A stretch of DNA of 64,000 nucleotides from Candidatus Eiseniibacteriota bacterium (GCA_036507005.1 DASXQT010000070.1:18817-82816), one strand, 5' to 3'; positions 18,502 through 41,792 are shown, numbered from the stretch's first letter. Translations and numbers: made by a program. Notes: generated from the letters alone by a model not told the origin.

Positions 18502-18542
18502 GTCTTCTGGCGTGGCGTGCCCCTCTGTGATGCTCACGGCGT

Positions 18543-21592: not shown

Positions 21593-21940
21593 GTGACCAC
21601 GAAGAAAACCACCAGGAAGAAGCGGGCAACCAGCAACGCCGTGGAGATCCTCCACCGGCGCTACGTCGCCGGCCGACCCAAGCAGGAAGCCGCACTCGAG
21701 GAAGTGCGCCTCAATGCCGCGATTGCCCAGCAGATCTACGACCTTCGCTCCAAGGCCGGCCTGACCCAGAAGCAGCTCGCGAACCTGGTCGGCACCACGC
21801 ACTCGGTCATCTCGCGCTTGGAGGATGCTGACTACGATGGCCACTCGCTGAGCATGCTTCAGCGGATCAGCAGCGCCCTCCGCTACCGGCTGCAGGTTCG
21901 CTTCGTTCCCGCCGGAGCAAGACGCAGGATTCCAGCGTAA
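21593..21940 (+). CDS. XRE-family helix-turn-helix protein (HigA-like antitoxin/regulator)
   Basis: AAGGAGG lies upstream of GTG 21593. IYDLRSKAGLTQKQLANLVGTTHSVISRLEDADYDGHSLSMLQRISSAL is a typical XRE HTH of antitoxin type. No intact partner toxin was found upstream. Confidence 0.7.
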   Translation: MTTKKTTRKKRATSNAVEILHRRYVAGRPKQEAALEEVRLNAAIAQQIYDLRSKAGLTQKQLANLVGTTHSVISRLEDADYDGHSLSMLQRISSALRYRLQVRFVPAGARRRIPA

Positions 21941-22006
21941 CCGCGGGCCGTCACCTTCGCGGAGGGTTGTTTCGGCGCGCGTGCGCGAAGATCTGGGGAT
22001 TTCGAG

Positions 22007-23239: not shown

Positions 23240-24156
23240 TCCCCGTCTCCCAGGGCCGCGCGCACGAAGCCGCCGGCACGCTGGAGGCGCGCTTCGGCCT
23301 CGGCGCGGCCGCAGCCCAGCTTGAGCATCACGATCGCCGTCTTCACGCTCTTGCCCGCCTCGTCGATCGCACGCGCCGCCGCCTCGTAGTCCACGCCCGC
23401 CACCGTCATCACGGTGCGCCGCGAGCGCTCGATCAGCTTCTCGCTGGTCGCCATCAGGTCCACCATCATGTTCTCGTAGACCTTGCCGGTGCGCACGAAG
23501 GCCGCGGTGGTGATCATGTTGAGCACCAGCTTCTGCGCCGTGCCCGCCTTCATGCGGGTCGAGCCCATCAGCACCTCGGGGCCCACCTCGGGGCAGATCG
23601 CCACGTCGATGTCGAGCGCGAACTCGCTGCGCGGCGTGCAGGTCACGTAAGCCGTGCGCGCCCCCAGTCGCTTGGCCACGCGCAGCGCCGCCACCACGAA
23701 GGGCGTGCGGCGGCTCGCGGCGAGGCCGATCACCGTGTCCTTGGGTCCCACCTGCTTCTCGAGGATCGCGCGCTCGCCCTCGTCCTCGCGGTCCTCCGCC
23801 CCTTCGACCGCGTGCACCAGCGCGTCGTACCCGCCGGCGATGATGCCCTGCACCTGCTCGGGATCGGAGCCGAAGGTGGGCGGGCATTCCGAGGCGTCCA
23901 GCACCCCGAGGCGGCCGCTGGTGCCCGCGCCCACGTAGATCAGGCGCCCGCCTTCGCGGAAGGAGGCGATCACCAACTCGACCGCCTTGGCGATCGCCGG
24001 CACCTCCTTGGCCACCGCCGCCTGCACCGCGCGGTCCTCGTCGGAGATGAGCTTGAGGAGCGCCCCGATCTCCAGGCGGTCCAGCTCGGTGGTGCGGGGA
24101 TTGCGCTGCTCGGTGGCGAGGCGGGCGAACTCGTCGAAGCGCGTGCGGTCGCTCAT
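23236..24156 (-). CDS. murQ: N-acetylmuramic acid 6-phosphate etherase
   Basis: TEQRNPRTTELD, the SIS domain GRLIYVGAGTSGRLGVLDASECPPTFG, and LMATSEKLIERS are typical of MurQ. ATG 24156 is preferred over the track start. Confidence 0.9.
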   Translation of the reverse strand: MSDRTRFDEFARLATEQRNPRTTELDRLEIGALLKLISDEDRAVQAAVAKEVPAIAKAVELVIASFREGGRLIYVGAGTSGRLGVLDASECPPTFGSDPEQVQGIIAGGYDALVHAVEGAEDREDEGERAILEKQVGPKDTVIGLAASRRTPFVVAALRVAKRLGARTAYVTCTPRSEFALDIDVAICPEVGPEVLMGSTRMKAGTAQKLVLNMITTAAFVRTGKVYENMMVDLMATSEKLIERSRRTVMTVAGVDYEAAARAIDEAGKSVKTAIVMLKLGCGRAEAEARLQRAGGFVRAALGDGE

Positions 24157-24325
24157 GCGCGGGCGAAGATGCCATGCGGGGCGCGGGGAGCGCAATCGGT
24201 GAATCAGCTGGCTGTACAGAGCAGATGATCTGGCCGGTCTTGGCGAGTGAATGACCGGACCCACGGGGGGTTACTCGGTCTTGCGGGCCCGCACCCCAAA
24301 TCCCGATCCACGGCCGCAAATCGGC

Positions 24326-27088
24326 TCACTCGACCCGAACGCTGTTGGCCAGCCCGAGTTCCTGCAAGATCTGCCGAAGGTCGGCGGCAAGACCTACGGC
24401 ACTCTCGGCCCTCACAGTGACGCAGAACTCCAGGCTGACCTTGAGGTCGGAGCCCGACCGAAGCTTTGGCAGAATCCTCGTCCCCAGGCGGTTCCAAAGC
24501 TCCGGTGGAATCGCGCCCACGAGGCGCAGGGTCTTGGTGGCGGCACCTGGTGCTGGCTCTGGCACAGAGGTGGGGCCAGGCTCCGGCGGTAGTAGTGGCC
24601 CTGCCATCGGACCCGGCTGGGGCACGACCTGAGAACTAGCGGCAAGACCGGCCTTGAGCGCCTCCGCCACAGCCTTTCGTAGCAGGAACACGCCGGCCTC
24701 GAAGGCGACCTCGTCGGGCGCCACGAGCTCCTGGAGCCACACCCGCTCGTAGCTGCCGTCGGGCTTCTGGCCCGAGGCCAGCCCGAACTCTCCGAGTCCA
24801 ACGAACTCGACAATCTTGCTCCGAAGAATCACGTCCGGATCAACAAGCCTCGTGAGCGAGCCGTTGAGGAAGCTCTGCCGCATGCTCGCGAGGGGCCACG
24901 CGCCTGATTGCTTGAGGGCCGGCGGCCAGTTTCGCTCGATGTAGCCCGCGCCCACAGCTTCATTCAGGAGCGCCTGGGACTTGAGCGCGGCGATCACACG
25001 ACCACAGAGCGTCTCATTGCCGCTCGAATGCCCTGCGCCGAGGTCGATCACCTTCAGCCCGTCCGCTTCTTGGCTGTCGGCGAGAACAGCAAACCGGTAG
25101 CCGCCCCAGACCTCATCCTTGGCGGCGTCCTCCGCGTCCTTCATCTTCGCCTGAAGCTCTGCCCGGTCGCTCTTGTCAAATTCACCACCGAGCGTGCCCT
25201 GGGCGACCTCGCGCGCCACGCGCTTCCACGCGAGCCCCAGCTCCGCCTTGTCGCGCAGGTCCCTGCCCGGCTTCTTCAGGCACCAGACGAGCGCTCCCGG
25301 ATAGAGCCGGGGCGATTTTCCGCGCTGGCGTGTCCACTCGGCGAGCTGCGCACGCAACGAGCCGCCTCCCGACCATTCCACCTCCGGATCAGCTATGAGG
25401 AGAGTTAGTTTCGGCGTGTCCGGGATCTCAGCCCCATCGTGCGGAAAGGCCACGACGGGGATGCTGGCGCCGCGTCGGAACTCTTCCTCAACGAGCTTGC
25501 GCATCGCGGGCTTGACCTCGGTTTCCTCGTCGAGCGAAGCGCGCCGGTCGCTCACCACCTTCTTCATGGTCGGCTGGTAGCCGATGCGGAAGCCGTCCGC
25601 GCCCGTCTTGCGGATGAAGTACGACCTGCCTTCGAGAACAATTGCGGCGTTGTCGATTGAAGTCGTGTCAAGCTCGGGCTCGCCGAGCGCGAAGCGCAGC
25701 TCGGGGAGATGCGCGACCTTGTCGGTCTGCCCGCCCGACGACTCGAAGAGGATCGCGGTACCGACGCGCCGGTGGATGTCCCGTAGCGGCCCCTTGGTAT
25801 CCGCGTCGAGTGCCATGCTGTGCGCCTGCTCGCCGGCGATGTCCGTTTCGATCGCGGCGACGAGGCGCGACTCGCCGAGCTGACCCAGTACGACGCTCCG
25901 GAATCCGGGCTCCGCGAGTGGGGCCGATCCAAGCGTGAGGAGCGGCTCCGTACGAGCCTTGCGAAAACCCTCCTGCGCCGCGATCGAGATCCACTGCGCC
26001 AGCATCGCCAGTGTGCCGCGCGTCTGCTGGTACTGGGGCAGCGCCTGCCACTTGCGCTGGAACACCGACAGCGTCGCCGGATGGAACGGGTAGCAGGCCT
26101 CGAAGCGGCGCTGTAGCAACTCGCGCGCTTTGGCCTCGGTCGCGGCCGAGTCCACGGCGGTCCACTCGGGCGGGAGCTGCGCCCGCCGCTCGAAGCACCA
26201 GTCGCCGTAGGCTTTGGCGACGTTCTTCCGAATCTTCTCGCTCCCGAGGTCCTGGAAGAGTCGCCTTCGGACGACTTCGCTGATCTCAGTCTCGTCGTTG
26301 GCGATCAGGTCCTTCGCCACGCGCCGCACGATCTTCGAGATCCTCTCCTGCCACTCCTGATCCCACTCCGTCATCTCGACCTGGCTGCGCGGCAGGCTGA
26401 TCACCGCCGCGCCATGCGTGGTGCCGGTGGTCGCGACCGTCAAGTTCTGGATGAAGGCGTGGAACGATTCGGCGCTGCCGCGGTGGCGGTTCAGGTAGTT
26501 CAGCACCTCATCGAAGAGCAGAAGCACCGGCGCGCCAGCTGCCTGGAAGACCCGCGCGATGGCATCGGTGCCGGGAGGCGTGGCCTTGGCCGCGGAACCA
26601 AGCGCCACGATGCCCTTGTCGCCCGCGAGCTGGCGGGCGATGTCGATCCACGGCGTCTCGCGCCCCGGCTGCGGGTCCCAGGCGTTGCCCACGAACACGG
26701 CGACCTTCGCCTTGGGCACAGAACCTAAGCCCGCTTCGCGCACCAGCTCGGCGACTCCATTGTGGCCGGCCACGGCGTCTCCGTTCTTCACCAGGTGGTA
26801 CAGCGTGGTGAGCGTGTGCGTCTTGCCGCCACCGAACTGGGTGATGAGCGTAAGCACAGGCGACGTGTTGTCGGTTCTCCCGGAGAGCCGGCGCAGCACC
26901 ATGCCCGCGTGCTCGCGTAGGGCGCGCGTGAAGCAGGTGCGCGCGAAGAACTGCGCAGGGTCGCGATAGTCCTCCGGCGCCGTCCCGGCCACGACCTGCT
27001 CGAGGGCGATGGCGAACTCGTCCGGGTTGAACGAGCGGCCTTCGCGCACTTCCTTGCGTGGTGTCGCGACCTTGTACCAGGGTTCCAT
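24326..27088 (-). CDS. DUF499-family P-loop ATPase (BrxC/PglY-like)
   Basis: MEPWYKVATPRKEVREGRSFNPDEFAIALEQVV is a typical DUF499 N-terminus. Walker A is QFGGGKTHTL. 920 aa. It starts 2 nt after the DUF4276 stop. Confidence 0.8.
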   Translation of the reverse strand: MEPWYKVATPRKEVREGRSFNPDEFAIALEQVVAGTAPEDYRDPAQFFARTCFTRALREHAGMVLRRLSGRTDNTSPVLTLITQFGGGKTHTLTTLYHLVKNGDAVAGHNGVAELVREAGLGSVPKAKVAVFVGNAWDPQPGRETPWIDIARQLAGDKGIVALGSAAKATPPGTDAIARVFQAAGAPVLLLFDEVLNYLNRHRGSAESFHAFIQNLTVATTGTTHGAAVISLPRSQVEMTEWDQEWQERISKIVRRVAKDLIANDETEISEVVRRRLFQDLGSEKIRKNVAKAYGDWCFERRAQLPPEWTAVDSAATEAKARELLQRRFEACYPFHPATLSVFQRKWQALPQYQQTRGTLAMLAQWISIAAQEGFRKARTEPLLTLGSAPLAEPGFRSVVLGQLGESRLVAAIETDIAGEQAHSMALDADTKGPLRDIHRRVGTAILFESSGGQTDKVAHLPELRFALGEPELDTTSIDNAAIVLEGRSYFIRKTGADGFRIGYQPTMKKVVSDRRASLDEETEVKPAMRKLVEEEFRRGASIPVVAFPHDGAEIPDTPKLTLLIADPEVEWSGGGSLRAQLAEWTRQRGKSPRLYPGALVWCLKKPGRDLRDKAELGLAWKRVAREVAQGTLGGEFDKSDRAELQAKMKDAEDAAKDEVWGGYRFAVLADSQEADGLKVIDLGAGHSSGNETLCGRVIAALKSQALLNEAVGAGYIERNWPPALKQSGAWPLASMRQSFLNGSLTRLVDPDVILRSKIVEFVGLGEFGLASGQKPDGSYERVWLQELVAPDEVAFEAGVFLLRKAVAEALKAGLAASSQVVPQPGPMAGPLLPPEPGPTSVPEPAPGAATKTLRLVGAIPPELWNRLGTRILPKLRSGSDLKVSLEFCVTVRAESAVGLAADLRQILQELGLANSVRVE

Positions 27089-27089
27089 G

Positions 27090-27737
27090 TCAACGCTCGT
27101 CGGTCCGCGCGCCGCTGGTTGTCGCCCACGAGACCGGGGGCCAGGCATCTACTTGGACCCCGTGGGCTCGAAGCAGCGAGCCGAATGCACTGGTCATGTG
27201 ACGAAAGCTGCGACTGCGCCGGTGGGCCGTGGCCATATCAAACATTGCTGTCAGAGCGGGCTGATCCGCCGTCTCGTGATAGCTGGCATCGGCGGCCATG
27301 AGGTCCTCGAGAGCCGCCTTCGCGCCCCTGGGTGCTTCCGGATCAAATGGGATCGCTGCATCAGGCCGGATACCGCGCTGTCCCCGCAGGGATTCGACCG
27401 CAGCGAGGAACCAGGCCTCGTACTCGCGATGAGCCATGACGACAGAGCATGGAATCCCGGCTGATGCAGCTGCTGCCCACCCCTGAATCCGGGGCGCCAG
27501 ATCGCGGGGACAATCCTCATCCCCGTCAAAGAGAATCAGGATCGCGTTGCAGTGCGCCTGCCTTCGAGCCAGTTCGACCGCCTGACAGAGGGATTCCTCT
27601 CGCACCAGCTGCGAACGATGACGACGAATGGGTCCCCCTACTTGGAGATGGAAAGCCCCCGCCTCATCACGAAGGCGGCGGAGCAGCACAGGCACCGCCT
27701 CCACCTCGCCGTGCCCCTCGACGATCGGCTGGATCAC
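27090..27737 (-). CDS. DUF4276-family (TOPRIM-like) protein
   Basis: 215 aa. The N-terminal IVEGHGEVEAVPVLL (conserved Glu) and ILILFDGDEDCP (DxD) fit a TOPRIM-like metal site. The start overlaps the AAA ATPase stop. Confidence 0.65.
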   Translation of the reverse strand: MIQPIVEGHGEVEAVPVLLRRLRDEAGAFHLQVGGPIRRHRSQLVREESLCQAVELARRQAHCNAILILFDGDEDCPRDLAPRIQGWAAAASAGIPCSVVMAHREYEAWFLAAVESLRGQRGIRPDAAIPFDPEAPRGAKAALEDLMAADASYHETADQPALTAMFDMATAHRRSRSFRHMTSAFGSLLRAHGVQVDAWPPVSWATTSGARTDER

Positions 27738-29002
27738 TCGTCTACTCTTTCGAAGAGATTGGGCTCCGGAGGATTCGACACATTCTCGAAGAGGGGTTCA
27801 GCTCGCAAGGCATTCGATCGAAGCAGCTCGCCGGCCCCCATCACGTGATCGCGAAGTGCTTCCCGAGTCGCCTCCGAGAGGTCGCCGACACGCGTGGCTC
27901 CATGGCCCCATTCAACGATCCGCAGGTGCTCCGCCCGAATCCACTTGGCGTCGAGAACCTCGGGGCTGTGAGTCGTCACCACCACCTGCATGCTCCTCGC
28001 AGCGTGCCGAATGACGTCGAGCACGGCACCTAGAGCGCCGGGATGTATCGTCGCCTCGGGTTCCTCGACCGCAACCAATGAGGGTGACGGACGTTGGAAA
28101 ACTGCGGTCAGAAGTCCGAGTGCCCGCAGTGTGCCGTCCGACATGTTGAACGCTTCGAAGCGAAGACTCTTTGGAGCACCCTTCGGCGGCTTGTCTGCGA
28201 CCCTCCACTTTCCACTCTCTCCCCCCGCATCGTCCCATTCTTGCGTGAACTCGAGGGACAGCTTATTGCCGTGCTTCCTCACGCGGACGGCACGAGTATT
28301 GGGAACGATCGTAGCCAAGATTTCGCAGAGGCGGTCCAACTGTTCCTCGGACTGCCGCCCGATCTCCTGGAGCACGCTGGCGGCGTTGCTCCCGTCCTTC
28401 CGCAGGCTGGTGCCGCCGTCCGGGTCTTGCATCTCTCGCAGCTTTGGGGGCTCGATCGAATAGGCGCGGAACCGCGACAGCGTGGAAACGACCGGCGCGA
28501 AACTGGCGTGGCCGCCCACGAGGGGTAGCGAGAGGGCGGTCGATTCCAAGGCCGGGTCGAGCCCCTTCACGTTCGTACGGAAGGACTTCTTCTCCCGTTC
28601 GAACCAGAATCGAGATTCCTTCGAGTTCTTGACGAGGCATTGTTCCTTCACGACTTCGAAGCCGTAGTTGGGAAGCGCCCGAACCTCAAAGGCATAGCGC
28701 CCGCCGGTTGCATCACCGTTGATCGGCCCGAAGACGACGCCGAGGCCGAGATTGGGCGGATAGCCTCCCTTTTCAGAGGTGCGATTCCGAACGGCAGTGA
28801 TTCCTCCGCGACGGTCGAAGACGGCCTGTAGCGGCACGGCCATAGAGTCCGCCAGGAACGAAAAGGCATCGACCAGATTGCTCTTCCCGGACCCGTTCCG
28901 GCCCACGAGAAACGTTGGATTGTCGAACTCAATGCGCTCACTCGGAATGCTGCGAAAGCGCTTTAGAATCAGACTTCGGACCACCGGCTTCACCATGCTC
29001 AC
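27734..29002 (-). CDS. AAA/ABC-type ATPase (AAA_15/AAA_21-like, SMC-like head)
   Basis: Walker A GRNGSGKSN, signature-like SDGTLRALGLL, Walker B LVAVEEPEATIHP and H-loop VVTTHSPEVL. The start overlaps the methylase stop. Confidence 0.85.
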   Translation of the reverse strand: MSMVKPVVRSLILKRFRSIPSERIEFDNPTFLVGRNGSGKSNLVDAFSFLADSMAVPLQAVFDRRGGITAVRNRTSEKGGYPPNLGLGVVFGPINGDATGGRYAFEVRALPNYGFEVVKEQCLVKNSKESRFWFEREKKSFRTNVKGLDPALESTALSLPLVGGHASFAPVVSTLSRFRAYSIEPPKLREMQDPDGGTSLRKDGSNAASVLQEIGRQSEEQLDRLCEILATIVPNTRAVRVRKHGNKLSLEFTQEWDDAGGESGKWRVADKPPKGAPKSLRFEAFNMSDGTLRALGLLTAVFQRPSPSLVAVEEPEATIHPGALGAVLDVIRHAARSMQVVVTTHSPEVLDAKWIRAEHLRIVEWGHGATRVGDLSEATREALRDHVMGAGELLRSNALRAEPLFENVSNPPEPNLFERVDE

Positions 29003-32000
29003 CTCGGAATGACCACCAGCATCGCGTCGAGCAGGCGCTTCTCCTCGCTCCCCTTAGGGTATAGGGCTGAGAGCGCGTTGGCGAGGCGCAGGAAGTCCGG
29101 GCCGCGCTCCTGCTCGGCCTTGAGCAGCGCACGCAGCGCGTTGGTGCGGCCGCCGGCCTGCAGGAGCATGGCCGCGTGGACGCGGTCGAGGGTCGTCGCC
29201 TCGCGGGCGGCGGCCAGGCTCTCGTCGGAAACGTCGACGTTGCCTCGTGTCCCGCGGATCCGGCCTCGCCCGCGGATCGCGGGAGCAGGGCTGGGCCGCA
29301 TGTCCGGGAAGAGCATCCCCTGGAGCGGGTTGGTGCCGACGGCCACCTCCTGCTCCAGCCGCGCGGCAACAGCTTGCGCGCCGTCCTCGCCGAAGAGTTG
29401 CTTCGCGCGCTCCGCGATCGGCAGCAGGCGCACCACGCCCTTTTTGGTCTCGATGACGCGGCCTTCCCACTTGGGAAGGTCGATGCCGAGCGGCTGCGCG
29501 AAGCGACGCACGACGTCGAAGACGAGCGAGAAGCCCTTGGCCTTGCCGCGGGAGGAGCCCTCTTCGTCGTCGTCCTCGTCGGACGGCTCGTCGTTGTCGC
29601 CTTCATCGCCCGCGGCGTCCGCCGTCTCGCCAACCGTACTCTGGAGCGTCCATAGAAAGAGCGCCGTGAGCCGCGCGTCTTCCTCGACGGCTCCGGCAGC
29701 GCCGTTGCGGGCCTTGGCCTCGGAGGTGCCGAGCACCTGCGCAAGGGCGCTTCGGCCCACGACCTCCCAGACTTTTTCCAGGTACTCGGCAAGGGCGACC
29801 TCGCGCCCGTCGGCGGTTTCAACCTTCGCGTAGCGGCTGAAGACCTCGAGCGCCGGCCCGATGCAGGCGAAGACGAGGTCGGCGCCGCGGATACCCTCGC
29901 CTTGCAGGCGCTCCATCCAATCGCCGACGCGGTTCGGAAGCTCGCGCAGAACGTCGGCCCAGTCGCCTACGCCGGCGTTGTCAGGGCGGGGGCGGCAGAT
30001 AAGGTGGACGCTCGTGGCGAGGGCGGCGGATTCACGGGCTCGGAGGCGTGTCGCCATCTCCGTGGCGATTGGCCACGAGCCGGTGATCGTCCAGCCACCA
30101 CGGATCATGCCAGACAGCAGCGCTTCCCATCCCTCAGTGGTCTTGTGTGCGAAAACCACGGATCCGACGCCGTCTTGACGGAGCACGCGCCGGCCTTCCG
30201 CGAACGCGCGCGCCATCGTTTCCTCGAACCACGCGCGGTTCTTCGGTCGACCGTTGTCTCGCTTCGTCTCATCTTGGACGGCTTCGCGTCGCTTCGGCGA
30301 GAGCGGATTGGCCGGATCAAACGGATCGCGCAGCGGCAGGTAGCCCGGCAGCACTCGCTTGAGCCAAACGAGAAAGAAGTCGGAGAGGTCCGCGTAGGGG
30401 ACCGCATCGTAGTACGGGGGATCGGTGAACCATACGGTCGCGGTCTCATCGGGAAGTGGATGCTCGGCCGCGTCGGCACTCTGCACCTGACCGCCGCGTG
30501 GCGCCGGTGCGGCTTCGATACATTTCGCGATCCACTCCAGCGCCCCGTTGAAGCCAACAGCTGAGAAGACTGGTGCTTCGGCCGTATTCCATTGGGGAGC
30601 GAGCACCTGTCTGGCGAAGACGTGATCTACGAACTCTCTTGAGTCGTGCCAATAGACCAGCGCAGCGCACTTGTCCACAACCCGGTCCACGACCAGCGCA
30701 AGCGTTTCGAGGACGGCGGTTGACTGGATCGAGCCGTCTCTCGCAACGTCTCTGATCGAGTCAATCATCCTCACGAGCGCCACCTTCTGTCGCGCCGTGA
30801 AGAGGTCGCCCCACTGAAGCATGCCGTACCGCTGGACGCTGAACGCGCGGCCAGCGCCCGAGCCGCCACCGGCAGGCGTTGGCTCATCCGGCACCGGGCA
30901 GAGGCCCGGCTTCCCGCCGCGCTCCCACTCAGCGAGGATCGCCGCGAGCCGCTCCTGCGCTTTGCGAGCGCCCTCGTAGTCCCGTTCGGAAGGCAGCCGG
31001 TAGTGCCGCCCCTGCTCGCCGGGTCGGAGCGTAACCACCGCGAGCATTCGCGCCCCGCCCGTACGGCGGCCATTCGCGTCGAAGACGACGTCGGCTCCGC
31101 CGCGCTGCGCGGCGAGCTGCGCACGCACGCGCTCCGGCGGGAGCACTGCGCCGCAGGCGACGCACGCTGCCTTCGCACGGGTCACCGTGCCTGCCGGCAC
31201 ATCCTTCTCCGTCTTCGGCTCGAAGACCTCGAACTCGACTCGCGGCGGCTCGCCTGCGGGCCGCACGACTCGATGCTTAAGCGCCCGCCTGCGCTCCGCC
31301 TTCTTGCAGAGCCAGAGCGAACGCGCGAGCGGGATCTCCGCGCCGCAGTTGGGGGCCTCGCAGCGCACGGTCCGCGCCCAGAGGTAGGCGATCGGCGTCG
31401 CGCCGTCCGGATCCTTCGGGTAGAGGTCCGCCAGCTCCTCTCCTGCTTGTTTCTTGATCTCCGTCCCGACACGGCGCAGCTCCTCGACAAGCTTTGACCC
31501 GTGGCGCGGAATGTCCTCGAGCATCACCTTGAGGATCAGGCATGCGACCGGGTTCAGGTCGCTCGCAAAAGCCTCGCACCCCAGCCGCAGCGCCTCGAGC
31601 GGGATCGAGCCACCCCCCGCAAACGGGTCCACGACCAGCGGCGGCTCCTCGCCGTGCGCCGCCTTCACCAGCGCCCGGCTCACCTCGAGATAGGTGCGTT
31701 GCGCCGCGTTATCCCAGTTCGCGAAGTCCGCGATGAACTTGAGCAGTGCCTTGCGCAGGTCCTCGTCCGTGGTCCCGGGATTGCAGCCGCCCACCTGCGG
31801 CAAGAGCTTTCGCGCCTGCTCCTTGAATTCCATCGGGCAAAGCGGATCGCACGGGTCCGGATACAGCAGCGCGAGCAGCACCGCTCGGCTCGACGCCAGC
31901 GGCCGCCGCGCCCACCACAGGTGCAGCGTGCTCGGATGCCCGTGGCGGATCGACTTCTCCCGCGCCGCGTGCCGCGAAACTTCCGCGATCGGGAAATCCA

Positions 32001-32034
32001 CCTCGGCGAGGCGCTTGCAGTCCTTGGGGATCAC
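28999..32034 (-). CDS. DUF1156-domain DNA methyltransferase (N6-adenine/N4-cytosine type)
   Basis: DUF1156 N-terminus (EVDFPIAEVSRHAAREKSIRHGHPSTLHLWWARRP). AdoMet motif VVDPFAGGGS. Catalytic motif FTDPPYYD. The GTG start at 32034 overlaps the DUF3644 stop (GTGA). Confidence 0.85.
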   Translation of the reverse strand: MIPKDCKRLAEVDFPIAEVSRHAAREKSIRHGHPSTLHLWWARRPLASSRAVLLALLYPDPCDPLCPMEFKEQARKLLPQVGGCNPGTTDEDLRKALLKFIADFANWDNAAQRTYLEVSRALVKAAHGEEPPLVVDPFAGGGSIPLEALRLGCEAFASDLNPVACLILKVMLEDIPRHGSKLVEELRRVGTEIKKQAGEELADLYPKDPDGATPIAYLWARTVRCEAPNCGAEIPLARSLWLCKKAERRRALKHRVVRPAGEPPRVEFEVFEPKTEKDVPAGTVTRAKAACVACGAVLPPERVRAQLAAQRGGADVVFDANGRRTGGARMLAVVTLRPGEQGRHYRLPSERDYEGARKAQERLAAILAEWERGGKPGLCPVPDEPTPAGGGSGAGRAFSVQRYGMLQWGDLFTARQKVALVRMIDSIRDVARDGSIQSTAVLETLALVVDRVVDKCAALVYWHDSREFVDHVFARQVLAPQWNTAEAPVFSAVGFNGALEWIAKCIEAAPAPRGGQVQSADAAEHPLPDETATVWFTDPPYYDAVPYADLSDFFLVWLKRVLPGYLPLRDPFDPANPLSPKRREAVQDETKRDNGRPKNRAWFEETMARAFAEGRRVLRQDGVGSVVFAHKTTEGWEALLSGMIRGGWTITGSWPIATEMATRLRARESAALATSVHLICRPRPDNAGVGDWADVLRELPNRVGDWMERLQGEGIRGADLVFACIGPALEVFSRYAKVETADGREVALAEYLEKVWEVVGRSALAQVLGTSEAKARNGAAGAVEEDARLTALFLWTLQSTVGETADAAGDEGDNDEPSDEDDDEEGSSRGKAKGFSLVFDVVRRFAQPLGIDLPKWEGRVIETKKGVVRLLPIAERAKQLFGEDGAQAVAARLEQEVAVGTNPLQGMLFPDMRPSPAPAIRGRGRIRGTRGNVDVSDESLAAAREATTLDRVHAAMLLQAGGRTNALRALLKAEQERGPDFLRLANALSALYPKGSEEKRLLDAMLVVIPR

Positions 32035-33107
32035 GAGGTTGCGCTCCTGGCTTCAATGGGCTTCGCGGTGGCCTTTCTTCTCGTGATGATGTTCGCGTAG
32101 AGCGCAAGATCAGCGAGCCTCTCCCCAAGGAAGTCGACCCACTGCCGCGTGTAGCAGTAGTCCTTGTGGAGATCATCGTAGACACAGAACTGAGGGTTGC
32201 ACGATGACGGATCCGGTGCCCTGCTTGTCGGCCGGATCTTGAAATGCTCATAGCAAAGCTTGTGGTCGTAAGTCGTGAACCGCTTGCCGAGCTTGGTCGC
32301 AACTTGGTTTGCCACCTGCGTCGGCTTCAACAGGCCCAGATTTGCGATCTGCACCTCCTTCGGCTTGATCATCGCCACTACCTTGTCGTAGTTCCTCATC
32401 TCCTCAGGCTTCGAGGGATCGTACTTGACCCATTCCACTGCAACTGAATCCTTGCTCGCGTGATTGCCGATCTTCGGAACGAGGAAGACTTTGAAGCTGT
32501 ACGCCAGATCGTTCTGCACGTCCGCGCTCAGACTCGACCTGAAGGCGTCCACGTATTGCTTGATCGCCTTGAATGCTCCAGCAGTAGCTTTGGCGGCCGG
32601 CGCCGATGAACCCTTCGGAATGACATGTGAGAACTGCAAGGCAAACGTGAGACCGCCGCGAATCGCGTACCGGTCACCAAAATCCGAAACCAGCAAGGAC
32701 TCGAAGTTCAGCAGCAGCGCTTGGCATTCGCCGAAGACTTCTGGATCGATCTGCGCAAGTGAACGATGCTCGATCTTGTTGCGGAGCCCAATGAAGAACT
32801 CGAGATTACGCCGGGCGGCAGGGTTAGTCGCCTTGTAGTGTTGCTGCAGACACTCCTTGAGCTCCCAGCGTCGAGGCTCGCCATCGATTCGGTCGTACCG
32901 TCTTGATCCGGGCTTTCGGTAGTACGGCTTGGTTCCATTGCGAAGGAACATCGCGTGAAAGAGGGACGTCCAGGCGATGATCATCAGGACGACATACGCG
33001 CCTGACCGGAAGCTCGCCGTGGGGCGGTTGTAGGTCTCCACAGCGAGCAGGGCGGTCTCCCTCGCCTTTTCGACGAGAGCCTTGACATCGTAGGGCAGCC
33101 CCCTCAT
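32031..33107 (-). CDS. DUF3644-family protein
   Basis: ARETALLAVETYNRPTASFRSGAYVVLMIIAWTSLFHAMFL matches the conserved DUF3644 N-terminal block. 358 aa. Confidence 0.6.
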   Translation of the reverse strand: MRGLPYDVKALVEKARETALLAVETYNRPTASFRSGAYVVLMIIAWTSLFHAMFLRNGTKPYYRKPGSRRYDRIDGEPRRWELKECLQQHYKATNPAARRNLEFFIGLRNKIEHRSLAQIDPEVFGECQALLLNFESLLVSDFGDRYAIRGGLTFALQFSHVIPKGSSAPAAKATAGAFKAIKQYVDAFRSSLSADVQNDLAYSFKVFLVPKIGNHASKDSVAVEWVKYDPSKPEEMRNYDKVVAMIKPKEVQIANLGLLKPTQVANQVATKLGKRFTTYDHKLCYEHFKIRPTSRAPDPSSCNPQFCVYDDLHKDYCYTRQWVDFLGERLADLALYANIITRRKATAKPIEARSATS

Positions 33108-33238
33108 GGGGTCTCATCCCTCAACGCGGGCGTACTCGGATGCCCGTGCCGGACAGACTTCTGCCGCGCCGCGTGCCGCGAAACTTCCGCGATCGGGAAG
33201 TCCACCTCGGCCAGGCGCTTGCAGTCCTTCGGGATCAC
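33104..33238 (-). pseudogene. 44-codon relic of the DUF1156 methylase 5' end
   Basis: 33135-33238 is about 92% identical to 31931-32034. It encodes VIPKDCKRLAEVDFPIAEVSRHAARQKSVRHGHP then diverges. Its GTG overlaps the AIPR stop (GTGA) and its TGA overlaps the DUF3644 ATG (ATGA). Confidence 0.8.
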
Positions 33239-35019
33239 TGGGCCATCTCCACGTCGAGCGCCTTACGAAACTTCGCCCACGCGCGATTGAACGCCGTTCG
33301 CGACCTGTTCCCGGAACCGCGCCACTGCTTGCCGAACTCCTTGTGCAGGTTGCGGCGCTGGAAGAACGTCGAGACGTCGATGGCCTTCTGTCCGGAGCCG
33401 CGCTTGTCGCGGTAGAACCGCAGGACCGCCACGAAAACCGCGTCGATCGCCCGGAGCAGCGGAGTCACGACGTCCGCGGTGTCGCGCTCACAGGCATTCC
33501 GGAACGCCTCAGTCTGGGTACGCTTCCGGCAGACTGACTCGAGGGAAACCCAGAGGAAGTTCAGCACCAGCCACTTCGCGTAGGCTCGCTCCGGATAGCC
33601 CCGCGCGGCGTAACTCACCTCGCGCATAAGCCAGTACCGCGACAGGTAGTAGTTCGGATCAGCCGTGGGGAAAATCTGCCCGTACCATCGTTCCTCGAAG
33701 AGGCGCTCCTTGCCCTCGCGAACGATCGAGGGATCGAGGTCACAGCCGGCCACGGCCTGTGCGATCTCCTCCTTCTTCACCAAGCGCAGATGTCGCGTGC
33801 CTGCAGCCCGCCGAGCCTCCCCCTTTGTCGTCCGTTTGCGGAGGTAGAGGTAGTGCAGCTTGCGGAGCTGACGTTCGATCTCGATCTGGCGCCGATCGTT
33901 CGACATCAGGTCCGACGGGCGAATCGCGTTCTGCCAATTCGTTGCCGAGACTATGCGGGATACTAGCGTCTCGAAGTTGTTGCCATTCTGGCTCGGTGAC
34001 CGCGGAACACGGATCACCCGGACAAGCACGCTCGCGCGCGGCCCCTTGCGTACGCTGCGCGCAAGGGTGCGCGTGGTTTGCTGGCCGTTGATCACCTGCG
34101 GATTAGTGACGCGCAGGATGTTCCTTCCTCGGCTCGACTCCTGCGTCGCGTCGTCGCAGACGATGGTGACTCCGTTGTTGTAGTACCAGAAGTACTCGGG
34201 CTCGTCCGTGAGCGTGGCTTCCATGCCTCGGTTGATCTCGCTGCTGCCGAGGAAGCCGCGGACATTTCTGGCAAAGAGCCGAGTGCCGGCCCGCTCGAAC
34301 AGGCCGGCCACTGCGAGATCGGTCATGGAGAACACCCACGATTCGATGTCGGTCTTGCTGTCGTAACGATTGAAGACGCCAGCCGTGCGCACGCCACCAC
34401 CCGACTCGATGTCGAGGTCGAGCGACGGCACGGGCGGCGCCACACCATCGAGGTAGTCGGCAAGCAGCAGAAGGATGCGCTTGCCGTCGAAGAGCTGGAA
34501 GGTGACCGTGCTGCCTGCTGCGCGGACGATGCGACTCGCCTCGTCATGGAGTGCACTGCTGCACTTGCCCAGTGTCACGTAGAACATGTGCAGCGCGTAT
34601 CCGCGCTTGCGGATTCGGCCGCGGGCGTCCTCGAGCCGGCCGAGCACCTCCGAGGAGATATCCTTGGCGAGGCTCGCGAAGGCCGCTCCGTCTCCGCAGA
34701 GATCCACGGCGAGTTGCGCGAACCCGGCCACATCTCCCCGGTGTTCGTTCTTCGTGGCGACCTTCTGACGGTACTTGCCCTGAACCACGAACACGATCCG
34801 CGCGGGATCGTCGATCAGGACGGCGTCCACTCCCTTGTCACGCGGTCCACCGCACAAGCCCGCCGTTGCCGCGGACTCGTCCTCGGCCACGAAGGCGCGC
34901 AGGAAAAAAAGGACGAACAGCTCGTCGTCGCCTAGCTTCGGGTAGCGGTCCCGGAACTCGGCGAGTTCGCGGCGTAGGTCGGTTTCGGTGAGATGGGCGT
35001 TGGCCATGGGCGTCAGCAT
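33235..35019 (-). CDS. AIPR-family abortive-infection protein with N-terminal PD-(D/E)xK-like module
   Basis: YYNNGVTIVCD and VINGQQTTRTL match AIPR core motifs. N-terminal DKGVDAVLIDD...VFVVQGKY looks like a restriction-endonuclease-fold motif. The start is ATG 35019 or 35007. Confidence 0.75.
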   Translation of the reverse strand: MLTPMANAHLTETDLRRELAEFRDRYPKLGDDELFVLFFLRAFVAEDESAATAGLCGGPRDKGVDAVLIDDPARIVFVVQGKYRQKVATKNEHRGDVAGFAQLAVDLCGDGAAFASLAKDISSEVLGRLEDARGRIRKRGYALHMFYVTLGKCSSALHDEASRIVRAAGSTVTFQLFDGKRILLLLADYLDGVAPPVPSLDLDIESGGGVRTAGVFNRYDSKTDIESWVFSMTDLAVAGLFERAGTRLFARNVRGFLGSSEINRGMEATLTDEPEYFWYYNNGVTIVCDDATQESSRGRNILRVTNPQVINGQQTTRTLARSVRKGPRASVLVRVIRVPRSPSQNGNNFETLVSRIVSATNWQNAIRPSDLMSNDRRQIEIERQLRKLHYLYLRKRTTKGEARRAAGTRHLRLVKKEEIAQAVAGCDLDPSIVREGKERLFEERWYGQIFPTADPNYYLSRYWLMREVSYAARGYPERAYAKWLVLNFLWVSLESVCRKRTQTEAFRNACERDTADVVTPLLRAIDAVFVAVLRFYRDKRGSGQKAIDVSTFFQRRNLHKEFGKQWRGSGNRSRTAFNRAWAKFRKALDVEMAQ

Positions 35020-38000
35020 CCTGTTCCGTAAGGCGGCGAGTCCTCGCGCACCTGCATCGGCTTCGTCATCGCGTTCACCGCCAAGTAGTAGTGGGCCACC
35101 TTCGTCACCTCGTTCCAGTCGAGGCGCGCCGGGTCACGAATCGGCTCCTGGAGTCGAGGAGCATTGTCGCAGTCGGTGACGACGTAGAGCCAGAAACAGT
35201 CGGGGCGGTCTTCTGCCACGCGCCGCTCATTGGGCGTGAGCAGTATTGTGCCGGTCGCTGCGCCAAGCCCCTTCACCTCGATGAGGCGCAGCTCTCCGGA
35301 GGCCAGATCGAGGCTCGTGACGTCGTAGCCCAGATTCTTCTCGGAGACGTCGTAGACCTGCCGGCCCTGCGCCCTCTCGCGCTCCATGACCACGCGCATG
35401 GCGATGGCTTCGGTCTCGAAGTTCGGCCTGAGACGCCGGACCTCTGGCGCCTCGCGCTCAGGGTGCGGCAGCGCGAGGACGCTCGCGAGCCGCTCGACCG
35501 CCTGGAGCGTGAGCGCCCGCTGGCGATCGAGGTCGACCCTGCGGCGCTCGCGGCGGGCCAGCAGCTCCGCGTGGCGCGCTTCAGCCTGTGCGAGCCGTCC
35601 CTCGGCACCGGGAAGCTTCTGTTCCACGTCGGCCGCGGCGCGGCCGATCTCCTCGTCCGCGCGCTGGAGCAGCTCGGTGAGCGAAAGCTCGACGTGGGCG
35701 CTGACCCGCTCGACCTCGGAGAGGCGTTCCTTGCGGGTCTCTTCGAGGAACGGTGCGAGCGCGTGCTCGTGGAGCCAGGTCGTCGCCTCGGGGAGGGTCG
35801 CGACCGCGGGCATCTGGGCCGGCGGGTCTGCAGGCGCGAAGTTGCCAAGCAGGCCAGGCTCCTGGAGCCGAGGTTCGCCGTCCTCGGGGATCTCCACCGC
35901 GAACAGCCGCTCGTGGACCACCTGCCCGAGTCCGTCCACCACGCGCGCCCGGTAGAAGTCGATGCGCGCCGGGTTTTCGTGCTGGAGCGAGTGGAAGGTC
36001 GCGCCCGTGCCGAGCACGTCGACCGCCCGCGCGTGGGTGTGCCGCCGGATCGCCTCGAAGAGCGGATGACCGGGCGTGACCCACTCCAGCTTCTCGGTCT
36101 CGGCGGCCTCGCGGTCCGTGGAGCAGCGCGGATAGCGGTCCGCGAGCGCGGGAAGCTTCCAGTCCTGGTCCTTCTCGTAACGACGAAGGATCGAGGGCGT
36201 GCGCGCCGGCTCGAAGGCGTGCGGCACGCTCGGGATGGTCTTGAGGGTGAGCGGCACAAACTCGGCCGCCTCACGGAGAAAACGCGCGATGGTCTCCGGC
36301 ACGACCCGCCGCTCTTGCGCCTGCGCGCGCCGCTCGATCAGCATCTCGAGGTTGAGCTTCTTGCTTGCGAGGCCCTCGAGGGCGTTTTGGCAGATGGCGC
36401 GGAACTGCGCTTCGTCCACATCGCGGAGCATGCGCTCCTCGAGATCCGCGTCGCCGAGCTTGCCGGCGTAGTAGTCGCGCAGCACGCGTTCGACGTGGGC
36501 TGCAGGCAGGACCTCGCCGACGACGTTGAAGACGGCGTCATCGTCCAGCGCGTCGCGAATCTCCTGCAGCTTTTCGTGCAGCCGCTGCAGGACGCGGCCC
36601 TCGATGGTGTTCGTAGCCACGAAGTTGAAGATCAGGCAGTCCTTGCGCTGCCCGTAGCGGTGGATGCGGCCCATCCGCTGCTCGAGGCGGTTCGGGTTCC
36701 ACGGGATGTCGTAGTTGAAGAGGATGTTGCAGACCTGGAGGTTGATCCCCTCGCCCGCGGCCTCGGTGGCAACAAGAACCTGGATCTCACCTTCGCGGAA
36801 CTGCTGCTCGGCGTGGAGGCGGGTGCCCGGCTCGTCACGCGACCCCGGCTTCATGCCGCCGTGGATGTAGCCGACGCGGAAACCCCACGACTTGAGTCGA
36901 TCAACGAGGTAGTCCAATGTGTCCTTGAACTCGGTGAAGAGAAGCAGTCGCTGGTCCGCGTGGTCGAAGAAGCCCTGCTCGTGGAGCAGGGCCTTGAGAT
37001 TCGAGAGCTTGGCCTCGGTGCCCGCGTCCTCGACCACCTGCGCCTGGGCCGCGAGGTGTCGCAGCTCCTCGACCTCGTTGCGAACCTGCTCCGCGCTCCC
37101 GGCGAGCGTGATGGCCTCGAGCATGGTTTCGAGCCGCTCGCGCTCGCTCTCCTCCATCTCCTCCAGCTCCTCCGGATCGGGGAGATCCGGCGGCGCCAAA
37201 CGCGCCAACTCCTGCGCTCGCTTAAGCCCCTCTTCAAGGCGTCGCACCCGATTCTCAAGCGACCGCCGCATGGCATGCGTGCTGGAAGCAAGCCGACGCT
37301 GGTAGAGCGACATCAGGAAGCCGATTGCCCGGGCGCGTGGATCTTCGCCCCCGGCCGCCGCGCGAGCGCTCTCACGCTTCACGAAGCGCGTTACGTCCCG
37401 GTACAGCTCGAACTCCGCCCCGTCGATCTGGAAGTCCACCGTGTGCGGAATCCGCTTGGTGAAGATCGGCTTGGCGGCCCAGCTGCCGTCCGTCTGCCGC
37501 TCCGGGAAATAGACCATTGCCTCTTTGGTCCGGCGCAGATAGAACGGCGCGCGCCGCTGGTCCATCGCTTGGCGGATGGACCGGACGTCCGCGTACGCGT
37601 CGGCATCGAGGAGCTGCAGGAAAAGGCTGAAGTTTTTTGGGTCGCCCTTGTGCGGGGTCGCTGTGAGCAGCAGGAGGTGGTCGGAGATGTCGCGCAGCAG
37701 CTCCCCCAGCCGGTAGCGCAGGCTCTTGTGCGACTCGTCCGCCGCCGACATGCGGTGCGCCTCGTCGACGATGACGAGATCCCAGTGGACCTGCCGCAGC
37801 CCGGGCAAGATCTCGCTGCGTTTGGCTAGGTCGAGGGACGTGATGAGCCGGTTCCGCTCCAGCCACTGGTTCACGCCGAACTGATCGCGGATGTCCTGGC
37901 CCTTGAGCACGAGGAACTTCGCGTCGAACTTCTCTTTGAGCTCGCGCTGCCACTGGAACGCGAGGTTGGCCGGACAGACGATGAGAATGCGCTCGGCGAG

Positions 38001-38450
38001 TCCGCGCAGCTCGAGCTCACGAATCAGTAGCCCCGCCATGATGGTCTTCCCCGCCCCGGCGTCGTCGGCGAGGAGGAAGCGCACGCGTGGCAGCTTCAGC
38101 AGGTGGTCGTAGATCGCCTCGAGTTGGTGCGGCAGCGGATCCACGCGAGAGATCGAAAGCCCGAAGTATGGATCGAACTCGTAGGCGATACCGAGGGCGT
38201 AGGCCTGGAGACCCAGCCGGAGGAGGCGTCCGTCGCCAGCGAAGGAATGCCGGGCGTCCAGGACCGCGAGGCGCTCGATCTCTTCGGCGCTGAGCGTCAC
38301 TTTGCGGAAGCGCTCCGATTGTGTGCCGACCATCCCAACGACCCAACTCGCCGGGCCATTGGGTTGCACAGTCTCGACGCGCATCGGCTCGTTGAAGTGC
38401 GGGCCGGTGAGGATCTGGCCCGGGTGCAGGGGTGGGGTTCCAACCGTCAT
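35013..38450 (-). CDS. SNF2-family helicase with C-terminal DUF3883 (PD-(D/E)xK-like) domain
   Basis: Motif I LADDAGAGKT, motif II VIVDEAHRM, motif III LLLTATP, motif VI QRMGRIHRYGQ. The C-terminal YDVTSLD...LRLIEVKG...CFWLYVV is DUF3883-like. The start is uncertain (ATG 38450, 38480 or 38543). Confidence 0.85.
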   Translation of the reverse strand: MTVGTPPLHPGQILTGPHFNEPMRVETVQPNGPASWVVGMVGTQSERFRKVTLSAEEIERLAVLDARHSFAGDGRLLRLGLQAYALGIAYEFDPYFGLSISRVDPLPHQLEAIYDHLLKLPRVRFLLADDAGAGKTIMAGLLIRELELRGLAERILIVCPANLAFQWQRELKEKFDAKFLVLKGQDIRDQFGVNQWLERNRLITSLDLAKRSEILPGLRQVHWDLVIVDEAHRMSAADESHKSLRYRLGELLRDISDHLLLLTATPHKGDPKNFSLFLQLLDADAYADVRSIRQAMDQRRAPFYLRRTKEAMVYFPERQTDGSWAAKPIFTKRIPHTVDFQIDGAEFELYRDVTRFVKRESARAAAGGEDPRARAIGFLMSLYQRRLASSTHAMRRSLENRVRRLEEGLKRAQELARLAPPDLPDPEELEEMEESERERLETMLEAITLAGSAEQVRNEVEELRHLAAQAQVVEDAGTEAKLSNLKALLHEQGFFDHADQRLLLFTEFKDTLDYLVDRLKSWGFRVGYIHGGMKPGSRDEPGTRLHAEQQFREGEIQVLVATEAAGEGINLQVCNILFNYDIPWNPNRLEQRMGRIHRYGQRKDCLIFNFVATNTIEGRVLQRLHEKLQEIRDALDDDAVFNVVGEVLPAAHVERVLRDYYAGKLGDADLEERMLRDVDEAQFRAICQNALEGLASKKLNLEMLIERRAQAQERRVVPETIARFLREAAEFVPLTLKTIPSVPHAFEPARTPSILRRYEKDQDWKLPALADRYPRCSTDREAAETEKLEWVTPGHPLFEAIRRHTHARAVDVLGTGATFHSLQHENPARIDFYRARVVDGLGQVVHERLFAVEIPEDGEPRLQEPGLLGNFAPADPPAQMPAVATLPEATTWLHEHALAPFLEETRKERLSEVERVSAHVELSLTELLQRADEEIGRAAADVEQKLPGAEGRLAQAEARHAELLARRERRRVDLDRQRALTLQAVERLASVLALPHPEREAPEVRRLRPNFETEAIAMRVVMERERAQGRQVYDVSEKNLGYDVTSLDLASGELRLIEVKGLGAATGTILLTPNERRVAEDRPDCFWLYVVTDCDNAPRLQEPIRDPARLDWNEVTKVAHYYLAVNAMTKPMQVREDSPPYGTGC

Positions 38451-38600: not shown

Positions 38601-38981
38601 ATGGCACGTCAAGAGGTGACTCTGGGCAGCGAAATCCGACGGCTCCGGTCACTCTCGGGGTCGACCCTTCGGGGCTTCGCAAAGCGGATCGGCGTATCGG
38701 CGCCGCACCTCTCCGACATCGAGCATGATCGCCGCCGGCCATCGAAGGAACTGCTGAAGAAGATCGCCCACGAGCTGCGTTCCGTGGGGGCGACCTACGA
38801 GGCGCTCGACAAGCTGGACCCACGTCCGGAAAAAGATGTGCGCGAGTGGGCCGCTGAGACACCTGAAGCGAGGACCATGCTGCGCATGGCGCGTGATGCG
38901 ACCGAGTCGGGCCGCCCGATGGCGGACGTACTCAAGAAACTGGAGCGCGCACTGAAGCAGCGGCGTGGGAGGGGCGACTGA
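38601..38981 (+). CDS. XRE-family HTH transcriptional regulator (CapH-like)
   Basis: LGSEIRRLRSLSGSTLRGFAKRIGVSAPHLSDIEHDRRRPS is a canonical XRE HTH. It is followed by an ImmA-type peptidase gene. Confidence 0.8.
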   Translation: MARQEVTLGSEIRRLRSLSGSTLRGFAKRIGVSAPHLSDIEHDRRRPSKELLKKIAHELRSVGATYEALDKLDPRPEKDVREWAAETPEARTMLRMARDATESGRPMADVLKKLERALKQRRGRGD

Positions 38982-39052: not shown

Positions 39053-39721
39053 ATGGAGGAGGTGCGCGCCCGAGTCGGCCCGGACGTCTTCGCGCCGGGG
39101 GCGGGCGTTGACGTTGACGCGGTGCTCGAGCACGCGTTCGGCGTGGTTCCGGATTTTGTGGACCTCCCTGAAGGTCTGCTGGGGCGCACGCACTTCGCAG
39201 CGGACGGACAGTTCACAGTTGAAGTGAGCCGCGTCCTTTCAGAGCGTGCAGAGCACGATCACGTCGCGCGTCGGCGCCTGCGGAGCACGCTTGGGCACGA
39301 GTGCGGCCACGGCGCCTACCATGCCCATCTCCACCTCGCCGACGAGAAGACCTTGTCGCTCTTTGGAGACTCCACCACTCCGCGCGCGGCGCGTATCCTG
39401 TGCCGCCACGAAAGCGTCGACGCGGTGTCGGCGGGCGCAAGGCCCCGATACAACGGGCACTGGTGGGAGTACCAAGCCAACCGCGGTATGGCAGCACTTC
39501 TCCTGCCCCGACGCCACTTCGCCGATCGGGTCAGCACCGCTTGCGCCACGCGGGGTGTCGCCACCGTCGAGGCGGTCGTGCGCACCGGCGAGGGCGAGCC
39601 GCTCGTGCGAGCGCTAGCGGACGTGTTCGACGTGAACCCGGTCATGGTGCTCTACCGGCTACAGGACCTCGGCTACCTGCCCCGGGACGTGTCGCAGGAG
39701 GTGCTGAGTCTCACGGATTGA
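39053..39721 (+). CDS. ImmA/IrrE-family zinc metallopeptidase (CapP-like)
   Basis: HEXXH motif LGHECGHGAYH. The size and its position after an XRE gene fit the family. The frame is open back to about 38897 without a canonical start, so the N-terminus is uncertain. Confidence 0.7.
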   Translation: MEEVRARVGPDVFAPGAGVDVDAVLEHAFGVVPDFVDLPEGLLGRTHFAADGQFTVEVSRVLSERAEHDHVARRRLRSTLGHECGHGAYHAHLHLADEKTLSLFGDSTTPRAARILCRHESVDAVSAGARPRYNGHWWEYQANRGMAALLLPRRHFADRVSTACATRGVATVEAVVRTGEGEPLVRALADVFDVNPVMVLYRLQDLGYLPRDVSQEVLSLTD

Positions 39722-41757: not shown

Positions 41758-41786
41758 TTGACGCTCCGCCGCCCTCCTCCTAGCGT
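41758..41786 (+). promoter_or_regulatory. Candidate promoter of the fpg pseudogene copy (leaderless geometry)
   Basis: TTGACG-N17-TAGCGT, 6 nt before ATG 41793. It is a duplicate of the arrangement at 42762-42791. Confidence 0.4.
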
Positions 41787-41792
41787 CGCCCC

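Follow-up and report, generated by a model that had tools for sequence, protein, structure and literature searches.

We analyzed a 64,000-nucleotide (nt) stretch of DNA from Candidatus Eiseniibacteriota bacterium (GCA_036507005.1, DASXQT010000070.1:18817-82816), referred to here as the window, which contains a strong candidate for an Hma-type defense locus at positions 24326-38450. The locus comprises seven intact, co-directional genes on the minus strand together with a 44-codon relic of the 5' end of one of them, hmaB. In the direction of the operon, 5' to 3', the order is helicase, AIPR, relic, DUF3644, DUF1156 methylase, AAA_21 ATPase, DUF4276, and DUF499. Gene calling carried out independently on the metagenome contig that contains this sequence, Ga0376049_0000085 (JGI 3300036861, 137 kb), gave the same genes with the same starts.

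A preliminary description of this DNA had reported seven co-directional, tightly packed open reading frames (ORFs), and this arrangement was confirmed, with junctions that are either overlaps of 4 to 7 nt or gaps of 1 to 2 nt. The helicase and AIPR genes overlap by 7 nt, or are separated by a 5-nt gap if AIPR starts at its second ATG. GTGA overlaps join AIPR to the relic, DUF3644 to the methylase, and the ATPase to DUF4276, and an ATGA overlap joins the relic to DUF3644. The methylase and ATPase genes share a further GTGA overlap or, with the alternative start of the ATPase, lie 2 nt apart, and a single nucleotide separates DUF4276 from DUF499. When the relic ORF is left uncounted, the AIPR and DUF3644 genes are 127 nt apart. 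There was no plausible terminator between operon genes; a scan returned 4 sites versus 10.4 expected by chance, and the sole minus-strand terminator-like site within the operon is weak and lies inside the AIPR coding sequence. Long plus-strand ORFs in the region matched no Pfam family and are shadows of the kind usual in DNA with a high guanine-plus-cytosine (GC) content.

The GC content of the operon is 0.656, compared to 0.715-0.729 in its flanks and 0.70-0.76 in the DNA outside the low-GC island. Block by block, the operon DNA is ~86-90% identical to a locus in a metagenome-assembled genome (MAG) of the Spirochaetota. The low GC content together with this level of identity points to recent horizontal transfer. 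When we sought markers of the island boundaries, the window contained no tRNA genes and no Rfam families, and the ORFs examined from 38.5 to 42.8 kb included no integrase.

Core genes and embedded cassettes

The first gene, hmaA (35013-38450, minus strand, 1145 amino acids [aa]), encodes an SNF2-family helicase with a C-terminal NOV_C (DUF3883) PD-(D/E)xK nuclease domain. Its product matched the PADLOC HmaA model at 1.5e-173 over residues 11-1092 and the Pfam families SNF2-rel_dom, Helicase_C, and NOV_C. Helicase motifs I, Ia, II, III, V, and VI are intact (GAGKT, DEAH, TATP, and QRMGRIHR among them), and the NOV_C tail carries D...EVK. The nearest solved relative of HmaA by sequence is RapA.

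The methylase gene, hmaB (28999-32034, minus strand, 1011 aa), encodes a DUF1156 N6-adenine DNA methyltransferase that matched PADLOC HmaB at 1.3e-111 and Pfam DUF1156 at 6e-22 and that contains WWARRP, FAGGG at residue 138, and DPPY at residue 538. Between the FAGGG and DPPY motifs lies a hypervariable segment (~30770-30490, residues ~422-514) that could not be aligned at the DNA level with any of seven relatives, while the flanking sequence on both sides aligned at ~72-90% identity. This segment is probably a target-recognition domain that has been swapped and that determines which motif is methylated.

The last gene of the operon, hmaC (24326-27088, minus strand, 920 aa), encodes a DUF499 AAA+ ATPase of the ORC/Cdc6 type that matched PADLOC HmaC at 2.7e-91 over residues 1-782, as well as Pfam DUF499. 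A Walker B motif, LLLFDE, is present, and the protein lacks an N-terminal HEPN fusion. A sequence search of solved structures returned no match for HmaB or HmaC.

The remaining four genes form three cassettes, two of them in the slot between hmaA and hmaB and one in the slot between hmaB and hmaC. Cassette 1 (33235-35019, minus strand, 594 aa) encodes an AIPR-family, AbiU-like abortive-infection protein that matched Pfam AIPR at 4e-42 (145 bits versus a cutoff of 25). The PADLOC AbiU model matched at 1.4e-41 and covered residues 247-514 only; AbiU proper is a lactococcal protein. By contrast with the AIPR match, the score against MzaE was 73 bits versus a cutoff of 1050, and we rejected that assignment. 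Cassette 2 (32031-33107, minus strand, 358 aa) encodes a DUF3644 HEPN-type protein, the PADLOC candidate PDC-S19, with matches to Pfam DUF3644 at 2.2e-51 and to PDC-S19 at 1.3e-134 over residues 1-346. DUF3644 has been identified as a HEPN domain (10.1101/2024.01.29.577857), and the Rx4H motif of this protein (RNKIEH, residues 109-114) does not vary among homologues with identities as low as 46%. The protein collection contained 2,756 relatives of the DUF3644 protein.

Cassette 3 is a pair of adjacent genes. Cassette 3a (27734-29002, or from an ATG at 28996, minus strand, 420-422 aa) encodes an ABC-type ATPase (AAA_21/AAA_15) that matched PADLOC HEC-01A at 3.2e-107 and Pfam AAA_21 at 5.6e-31, and it carries a Walker A motif, a signature-like SDGT, a Walker B EEPE, and TTHS. 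Cassette 3b (27090-27737, minus strand, 215 aa) encodes a DUF4276 TOPRIM-like nuclease that matched PADLOC HEC-01B at 3.1e-66 and Pfam DUF4276 and that has VEGHGE and DGDED motifs. The two genes, adjacent and overlapping by 4 nt, fit the definition of HEC-01, where HEC stands for "Hma-embedded candidate" (10.1101/2024.01.29.577857). A representative of HEC-01 was protective in E. coli B (PMC12881386).

All seven genes are full length relative to their models, and their catalytic motifs are intact. Pfam bore out every domain named in the preliminary description, and the SNF2, DPPY/FAGGG, and Walker A motifs that it listed were present, with the nuance that the P-loop of the DUF499 protein reads QFGGGKT (at residue 86), in which the GK[ST] core is intact and the first G of GxxxxGKT is missing.

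Identity of the locus and comparison with known systems

The Hma system (Helicase, Methylase, ATPase) was reportedly defined in 2021 by Payne et al. in PADLOC, and PADLOC models named every gene of the locus. The 2024 survey of Payne et al. counted systems whose genes lay on one strand and in one locus with no more than three embedded genes per slot; here, the three genes are on one strand, and each slot has two embedded genes, besides the relic ORF, which is not called as a gene. This locus has the same three proteins as Hma, with the same domain architecture, order, and strand, and both of its slots contain genes, which is the case for most Hma loci. Nothing essential differs, and the hmaC gene is one without a HEPN fusion. 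In the published surveys, embedded genes occurred in 62.7% of 1,485 Hma systems, in 376 distinct cassette sets; ABC ATPases were the most common embedded family, and 96.7% of embedded genes were oriented like the flanking system (10.1101/2024.01.29.577857). Liu et al. found insertions in 66.5% of hma loci and showed that HmaA of Halomonas protects E. coli against T4 and that this requires the NOV_C nickase (PMC11232893). A 2026 analysis in Nucleic Acids Research described the Hma trio as a type-1 "DUF499-centered BREX-related" system present in 2,446 taxa and put forward an RM-like model for it; DUF499 is fused to an N-terminal HEPN domain in ~56% of type-1 systems (PMC12839542).

Based on these matches, we consider it very probable that the locus is a horizontally acquired Hma operon, of the type-1 DUF499-centered BREX-related kind, with three independent embedded defense cassettes. 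The preliminary description had proposed a BREX-related defense operon built on the helicase, DUF1156, and DUF499 genes, which is how the trio is now formally classed (PMC12839542). It had also called the class poorly characterized, which does not hold: the trio is Hma, named in PADLOC in 2021, its helicase has been tested (PMC11232893), and the family was analyzed in 2026.

We compared the locus with the 80 closest HmaB loci (referred to by L numbers) from species-representative genomes of GTDB, in which HmaB is 57-80% identical to the protein described here. The set spans more than 15 phyla, and nearly all of the genomes are MAGs. The synteny survey of the trio upheld its conservation, with the order hmaA-hmaB-hmaC on one strand in every locus that holds at least two of the genes. 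The slot between hmaA and hmaB exceeded 600 nt in 57 of 64 loci and that between hmaB and hmaC in 55 of 69; L023 and L029 were the only loci with the bare trio. A PADLOC census of 257 slot ORFs was dominated by ABC ATPases of the HEC-01A/AriA/Old/GajA kind. In a Dehalococcoidia MAG, a 1.7-kb insertion sequence (IS)-like repeat with 99.4% identity between its copies (L037, 7286-9014 and 17874-19602) interrupts hmaC.

The cassettes of our locus recurred in this set apart from one another. AIPR, 91% identical, stands alone in the first slot of L050, and homologues at 91-92% occupy the same slot of L050 and L098. The unit of relic and DUF3644 gene is found without the other cassettes of the window in L062 and L083, behind a different gene, and DUF3644 homologues directly follow hmaA, with no relic, in L084 and L094. 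A HEC-01 pair (60% and 54%) fills the second slot of L026. The short contig L098 corresponds to the left half of our locus (hmaA-AIPR-relic-DUF3644-hmaB), and the full set of three cassettes was present in no other fetched locus. Since the cassettes are found separately in other Hma loci, they are accessory and modular and the trio is the core, as had been proposed for the three extra units. The preliminary description had further suggested that the composite might be undescribed. The exact set of cassettes is indeed new among the loci fetched, though only trivially so given the 376 distinct Hma-embedded sets on record; for the rest the suggestion falls, as PADLOC places every gene in a defined family and the nesting of genes in Hma is published.

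The same comparison bears on the possibility that the seven genes form one integrated, undescribed system in which the Hma machinery requires AIPR, DUF3644, and the ATPase/TOPRIM pair as subunits. All of the genes appear to be translationally coupled in one operon, as such a system would require, and hmaC here lacks the HEPN domain that more than half of type-1 systems carry fused to DUF499; a stand-alone DUF3644 HEPN protein could supply that function in trans. However, each cassette is separate or otherwise combined in related Hma loci, and the bare trio exists. DUF3644 homologues also adjoin unrelated restriction-modification (RM) systems, such as the Type III-like RM system of L086, and the definitions of the HEC-01 and PDC families cover units that are found outside Hma too (10.1101/2024.01.29.577857). 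We regard an integrated system as improbable.

Likenesses to other systems were of several kinds. The ATPase and DUF4276 pair is a strong match to HEC-01A/B, and the DUF3644 gene is a full-length match to PDC-S19. The pair also resembles PARIS, in that an OLD-type ABC ATPase is followed by a DUF4276/TOPRIM nuclease in a two-gene unit. In PARIS, the ABC ATPase AriA and the DUF4276 nuclease AriB are activated by anti-restriction proteins. The difference is that the best PADLOC models for our pair are those of HEC-01; the AriA match was only to the generic AAA_21 profile, and there was no AriB match at an E value of ≤1e-3. PARIS-like modules of an ABC ATPase and a TOPRIM protein are often recruited to type-1 systems (PMC12839542).

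The type-2 BREX-related system MANTIS, or Gao_RL, shares with our locus a DUF499 AAA+ ATPase, a DUF1156-type N6-adenine methylase, and a helicase-nuclease effector. Among the close relatives, it alone has a mechanism that has been worked out, namely ATPase-loaded methylation and restriction by the helicase-nuclease (10.64898/2026.09.23.753747). We rejected an assignment to MANTIS/Gao_RL: the locus has no MtsB (DUF3870)-like small gene and no PLD domain, its nuclease is PD-(D/E)xK rather than HKD/PLD, and the NCBIfam equivalog scores were far below their cutoffs (199/1000, 89/1200, and 176/1100). For type 3 BREX, the BrxC, BrxXI/PglXI, and BrxHII proteins are homologous to the ATPase, methylase, and SNF2 helicase (PMC12839542), and the PADLOC BrxHII model matched HmaA at 3.5e-90. 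BREX proper was rejected as well: no match to PglZ, BrxA, BrxB, BrxF, or BrxL was found among 17 proteins scanned between 17.7 and 41.5 kb at thresholds of E≤1e-3 and E≤1e-2, in agreement with the absence of PglZ, BrxA/B, and BrxL noted earlier. MADS is likewise a methylation-linked multigene defense operon with an ABC ATPase, and an overlap with it had been raised in the preliminary description. This could not be sustained: mad6-8, mandatory in the model of the MADS authors, were unmatched, and the only matches were weak ones to mad2 (4e-8, partial over ~86 residues) and mad3 (MAD3, 93 bits versus an NCBIfam cutoff of 420). DISARM was also rejected, as there is no DrmB (DUF1998), and the DrmD-type matches to HmaA reflect the shared SNF2 core (NCBIfam score of 368 versus a cutoff of 610).

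The hmaB relic and proposed cassette exchange

The relic (33104-33238, minus strand) is a 44-codon mini-ORF that encodes VIPKDCKRLAEVDFPIAEVSRHAARQKSVRHGHPSTPALRDETP, followed by a stop codon, and its translation gave a weak DUF1156 match. The methylase relic of the preliminary description is real: window positions 33130-33238 match the initial 109 nt of hmaB at 93% identity. The partner and intact copy of this direct repeat, at 31926-32034 on the minus strand, is the true hmaB 5' end. A repeat search of the window revealed no second relic around the AIPR or HEC-01 cassettes.

We aligned the locus with L050, whose first slot holds AIPR and whose hmaB is intact. Window positions 38424-33130 form one 5.3-kb block (89%) that covers hmaA, AIPR, and the first 109 nt of the L050 hmaB, and window positions 32033-30764 align with that same hmaB start. 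The net difference from L050 is a clean 1,204-nt insertion made up of a 22-nt linker, the DUF3644 gene, and a second copy of hmaB nt 1-109. The identical relic-linker-DUF3644 junction is present in at least 12 other contigs (L062, L083, L088-L093, L095, L096, L098, and L104), and the genes upstream of it differ between the loci that have enough upstream sequence. One junction shared by 13 contigs, with different upstream genes, argues that the junction arose once and that the upstream slot has since been exchanged repeatedly. The linker ends in ~13 nt that match the native spacer between hmaA and DUF3644 in L094, which has no relic. Pairwise identities among the 109-nt copies from four loci were 88-97% and gave no clear signal as to the origin of the two copies in the window.

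Of 78 loci, 11-12 have a truncated copy of the hmaB 5' end ahead of the intact gene. Relics of other kinds were also present in these 78 loci: the hmaA 3' end in seven, the hmaB 3' end in two, and the hmaC 5' end in one. About a quarter of the related loci have embedded genes that are flanked by such relics, and the breakpoints of the relics vary between loci. Some loci have three relics each, as in L090/L102 (3478, 5870, and 7074) and L095 (246, 5870, and 7074), and L027 has three hmaA 3' copies; multiple relics within a locus separate successive embedded genes in a punctuation-like manner. The Rokubacteria MAG GWA2_70_23 carries two separate Hma loci (L001 and L021), each with an hmaB 5' relic, which could recombine with each other.

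Among the relics linked to DUF3644, 11 of 13 have a frame that is open from an hmaB-type start codon to the ATGA overlap with DUF3644, and three of these relics carry in-frame deletions. The relics in L021, L040, and L070 also end on the start of the next gene. As an indication of selection on the frame, the indels (three in frame versus two frame shifting) are too few for significance.

A relic of this sort, a truncated hmaB start, might be taken as a sign of pseudogenization, that is, of a decaying or inactive remnant of an Hma locus, the more so because hma genes are frameshifted or interrupted by an IS in related loci such as L037 and L121. However, the relic lies between genes and is followed by a full hmaB, the operon has its seven genes at full length with catalytic motifs intact, and the relic frame is itself preserved in most of the related loci. 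We therefore consider a remnant very unlikely, and less likely than an integrated seven-gene system.

We read the 109-nt relic as a footprint of recombination between Hma loci; in most loci, it is still an open leader ORF whose end falls on the start codon of DUF3644. A wider model, which we consider a little less likely than not, concerns how cassettes are exchanged. Conserved hma gene ends, and especially the first ~60-235 nt of hmaB, may act as portable regions of homology, so that defense cassettes can move from one Hma locus to another and be stacked there with no recombinase of their own, while truncated copies remain between cassettes. On this model, the relic-linker-DUF3644-hmaB unit would have arisen once and then been combined with different upstream cassettes, here AIPR, and the relic may have been retained as a translated leader that couples translation to the inserted gene. 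Duplications, remnants, or recombination were not mentioned in the Hma literature that we searched, and one Hma paper left out loci with duplicated or pseudogenized hma genes. The relic at this locus is a fresh detail, absent from that literature, and is the part worth following up.

Genomic surroundings and proposed mode of action

Three genes divergent from hmaA share its low-GC island: one for an XRE helix-turn-helix (HTH) protein (38601-38981, plus strand; capH-like at 1.6e-8 by Pfam/PADLOC), one for an ImmA/IrrE-like HExxH protein (39053-39721, plus strand; capP-like at 4e-6), and one for an SDH-family ClpP-like serine protease (39869-41092, plus strand). These genes might form a regulator set that responds to damage, or a module of their own. 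They had no homologues beside the 80 other Hma loci, and we rejected a conserved Hma regulator on that ground. The 150-nt divergent intergenic region contained no inverted repeat and no sigma-70-like promoter.

At the right edge of the same island, positions 41771-42698 contain a second, decayed copy of the fpg/mutM 5' region that is 81-89% identical to the intact fpg (42798-43643). This copy has indels and an internal deletion, and its reading continues into an ABM-domain ORF; it may have been left by recombination when the island arrived.

On the other side of the operon, a second low-GC islet (17475-22006, GC content of 0.62) splits the murQ and sugar-binding-protein genes from the ABC permease genes. 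It encodes a DUF2971 protein (PADLOC PDC-S31, 1.9e-43), an AbiTii-domain protein, an HTH protein, and a 440-aa protein that is internally duplicated and matched no family. The two copies of a 58-nt direct repeat (17376-17433 and 24139-24196; 76% identity) lie over the start regions of the permease ORF and murQ, and both ORFs begin with M(D/S)DRTR. The AT skew of the plus strand is unusually strong and positive (0.18-0.30) at 15000-17000 and 53000-60000.

By analogy with relatives, we propose the following mode of action for the Hma operon. HmaB would place N6-adenine methyl marks on host DNA, at a short motif that its hypervariable target-recognition segment sets. HmaC, to judge from the homologous MANTIS ATPase, would load and regulate the methylase and recognize unmodified DNA, and HmaA would translocate on unmodified DNA and nick or cut it with its C-terminal PD-(D/E)xK nuclease. 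The cassettes may be a second line, probably abortive, that acts as independent backups expressed from the same transcript. Cassette 1 would act as an AIPR (AbiU-like) abortive-infection protein and the DUF3644 protein as a HEPN RNase. HEC-01 would combine a PARIS-like ATPase sensor with a TOPRIM nuclease and may respond to anti-restriction proteins, being triggered when a phage blocks the restriction arm.

Several points weigh against this reading of the locus. In the Halomonas experiments, HmaA alone defended, and overexpression of HmaB left sensitivity to T4 unchanged (PMC11232893). DNA methylation has been demonstrated for no Hma methylase to date. The putative ATPase-loading step is borrowed from type-2 systems, whose extra protein, MtsB, is absent here. 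The other study that tested HEC-01 reported no protection (10.1101/2024.01.29.577857). A single transcript for all operon genes is a prediction, as are the roles of PDC-S19 and AIPR at this locus.

That the trio is instead a housekeeping set, for RapA-like recycling in transcription or for epigenetic regulation, is the least likely alternative and would owe its appeal to RapA, the RNA-polymerase recycling factor to which HmaA is closest among solved proteins, but the low-GC island, the movement between phyla, the packing of the locus with abortive-infection-type genes, and the anti-phage activity shown for the family leave it little room.

As a defense locus, the Hma operon described here is ordinary: it is a known system that displays a known embedding phenomenon, one more Hma from an uncultured high-GC bacterium. 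With three different second-line modules in one restriction-like operon, it is a specimen for testing the backup role of embedded modules. How genes become embedded was left open by the authors of the embedding study, and the relic, considered alongside the related loci, provides a concrete account of gene embedding in defense operons that can be tested.

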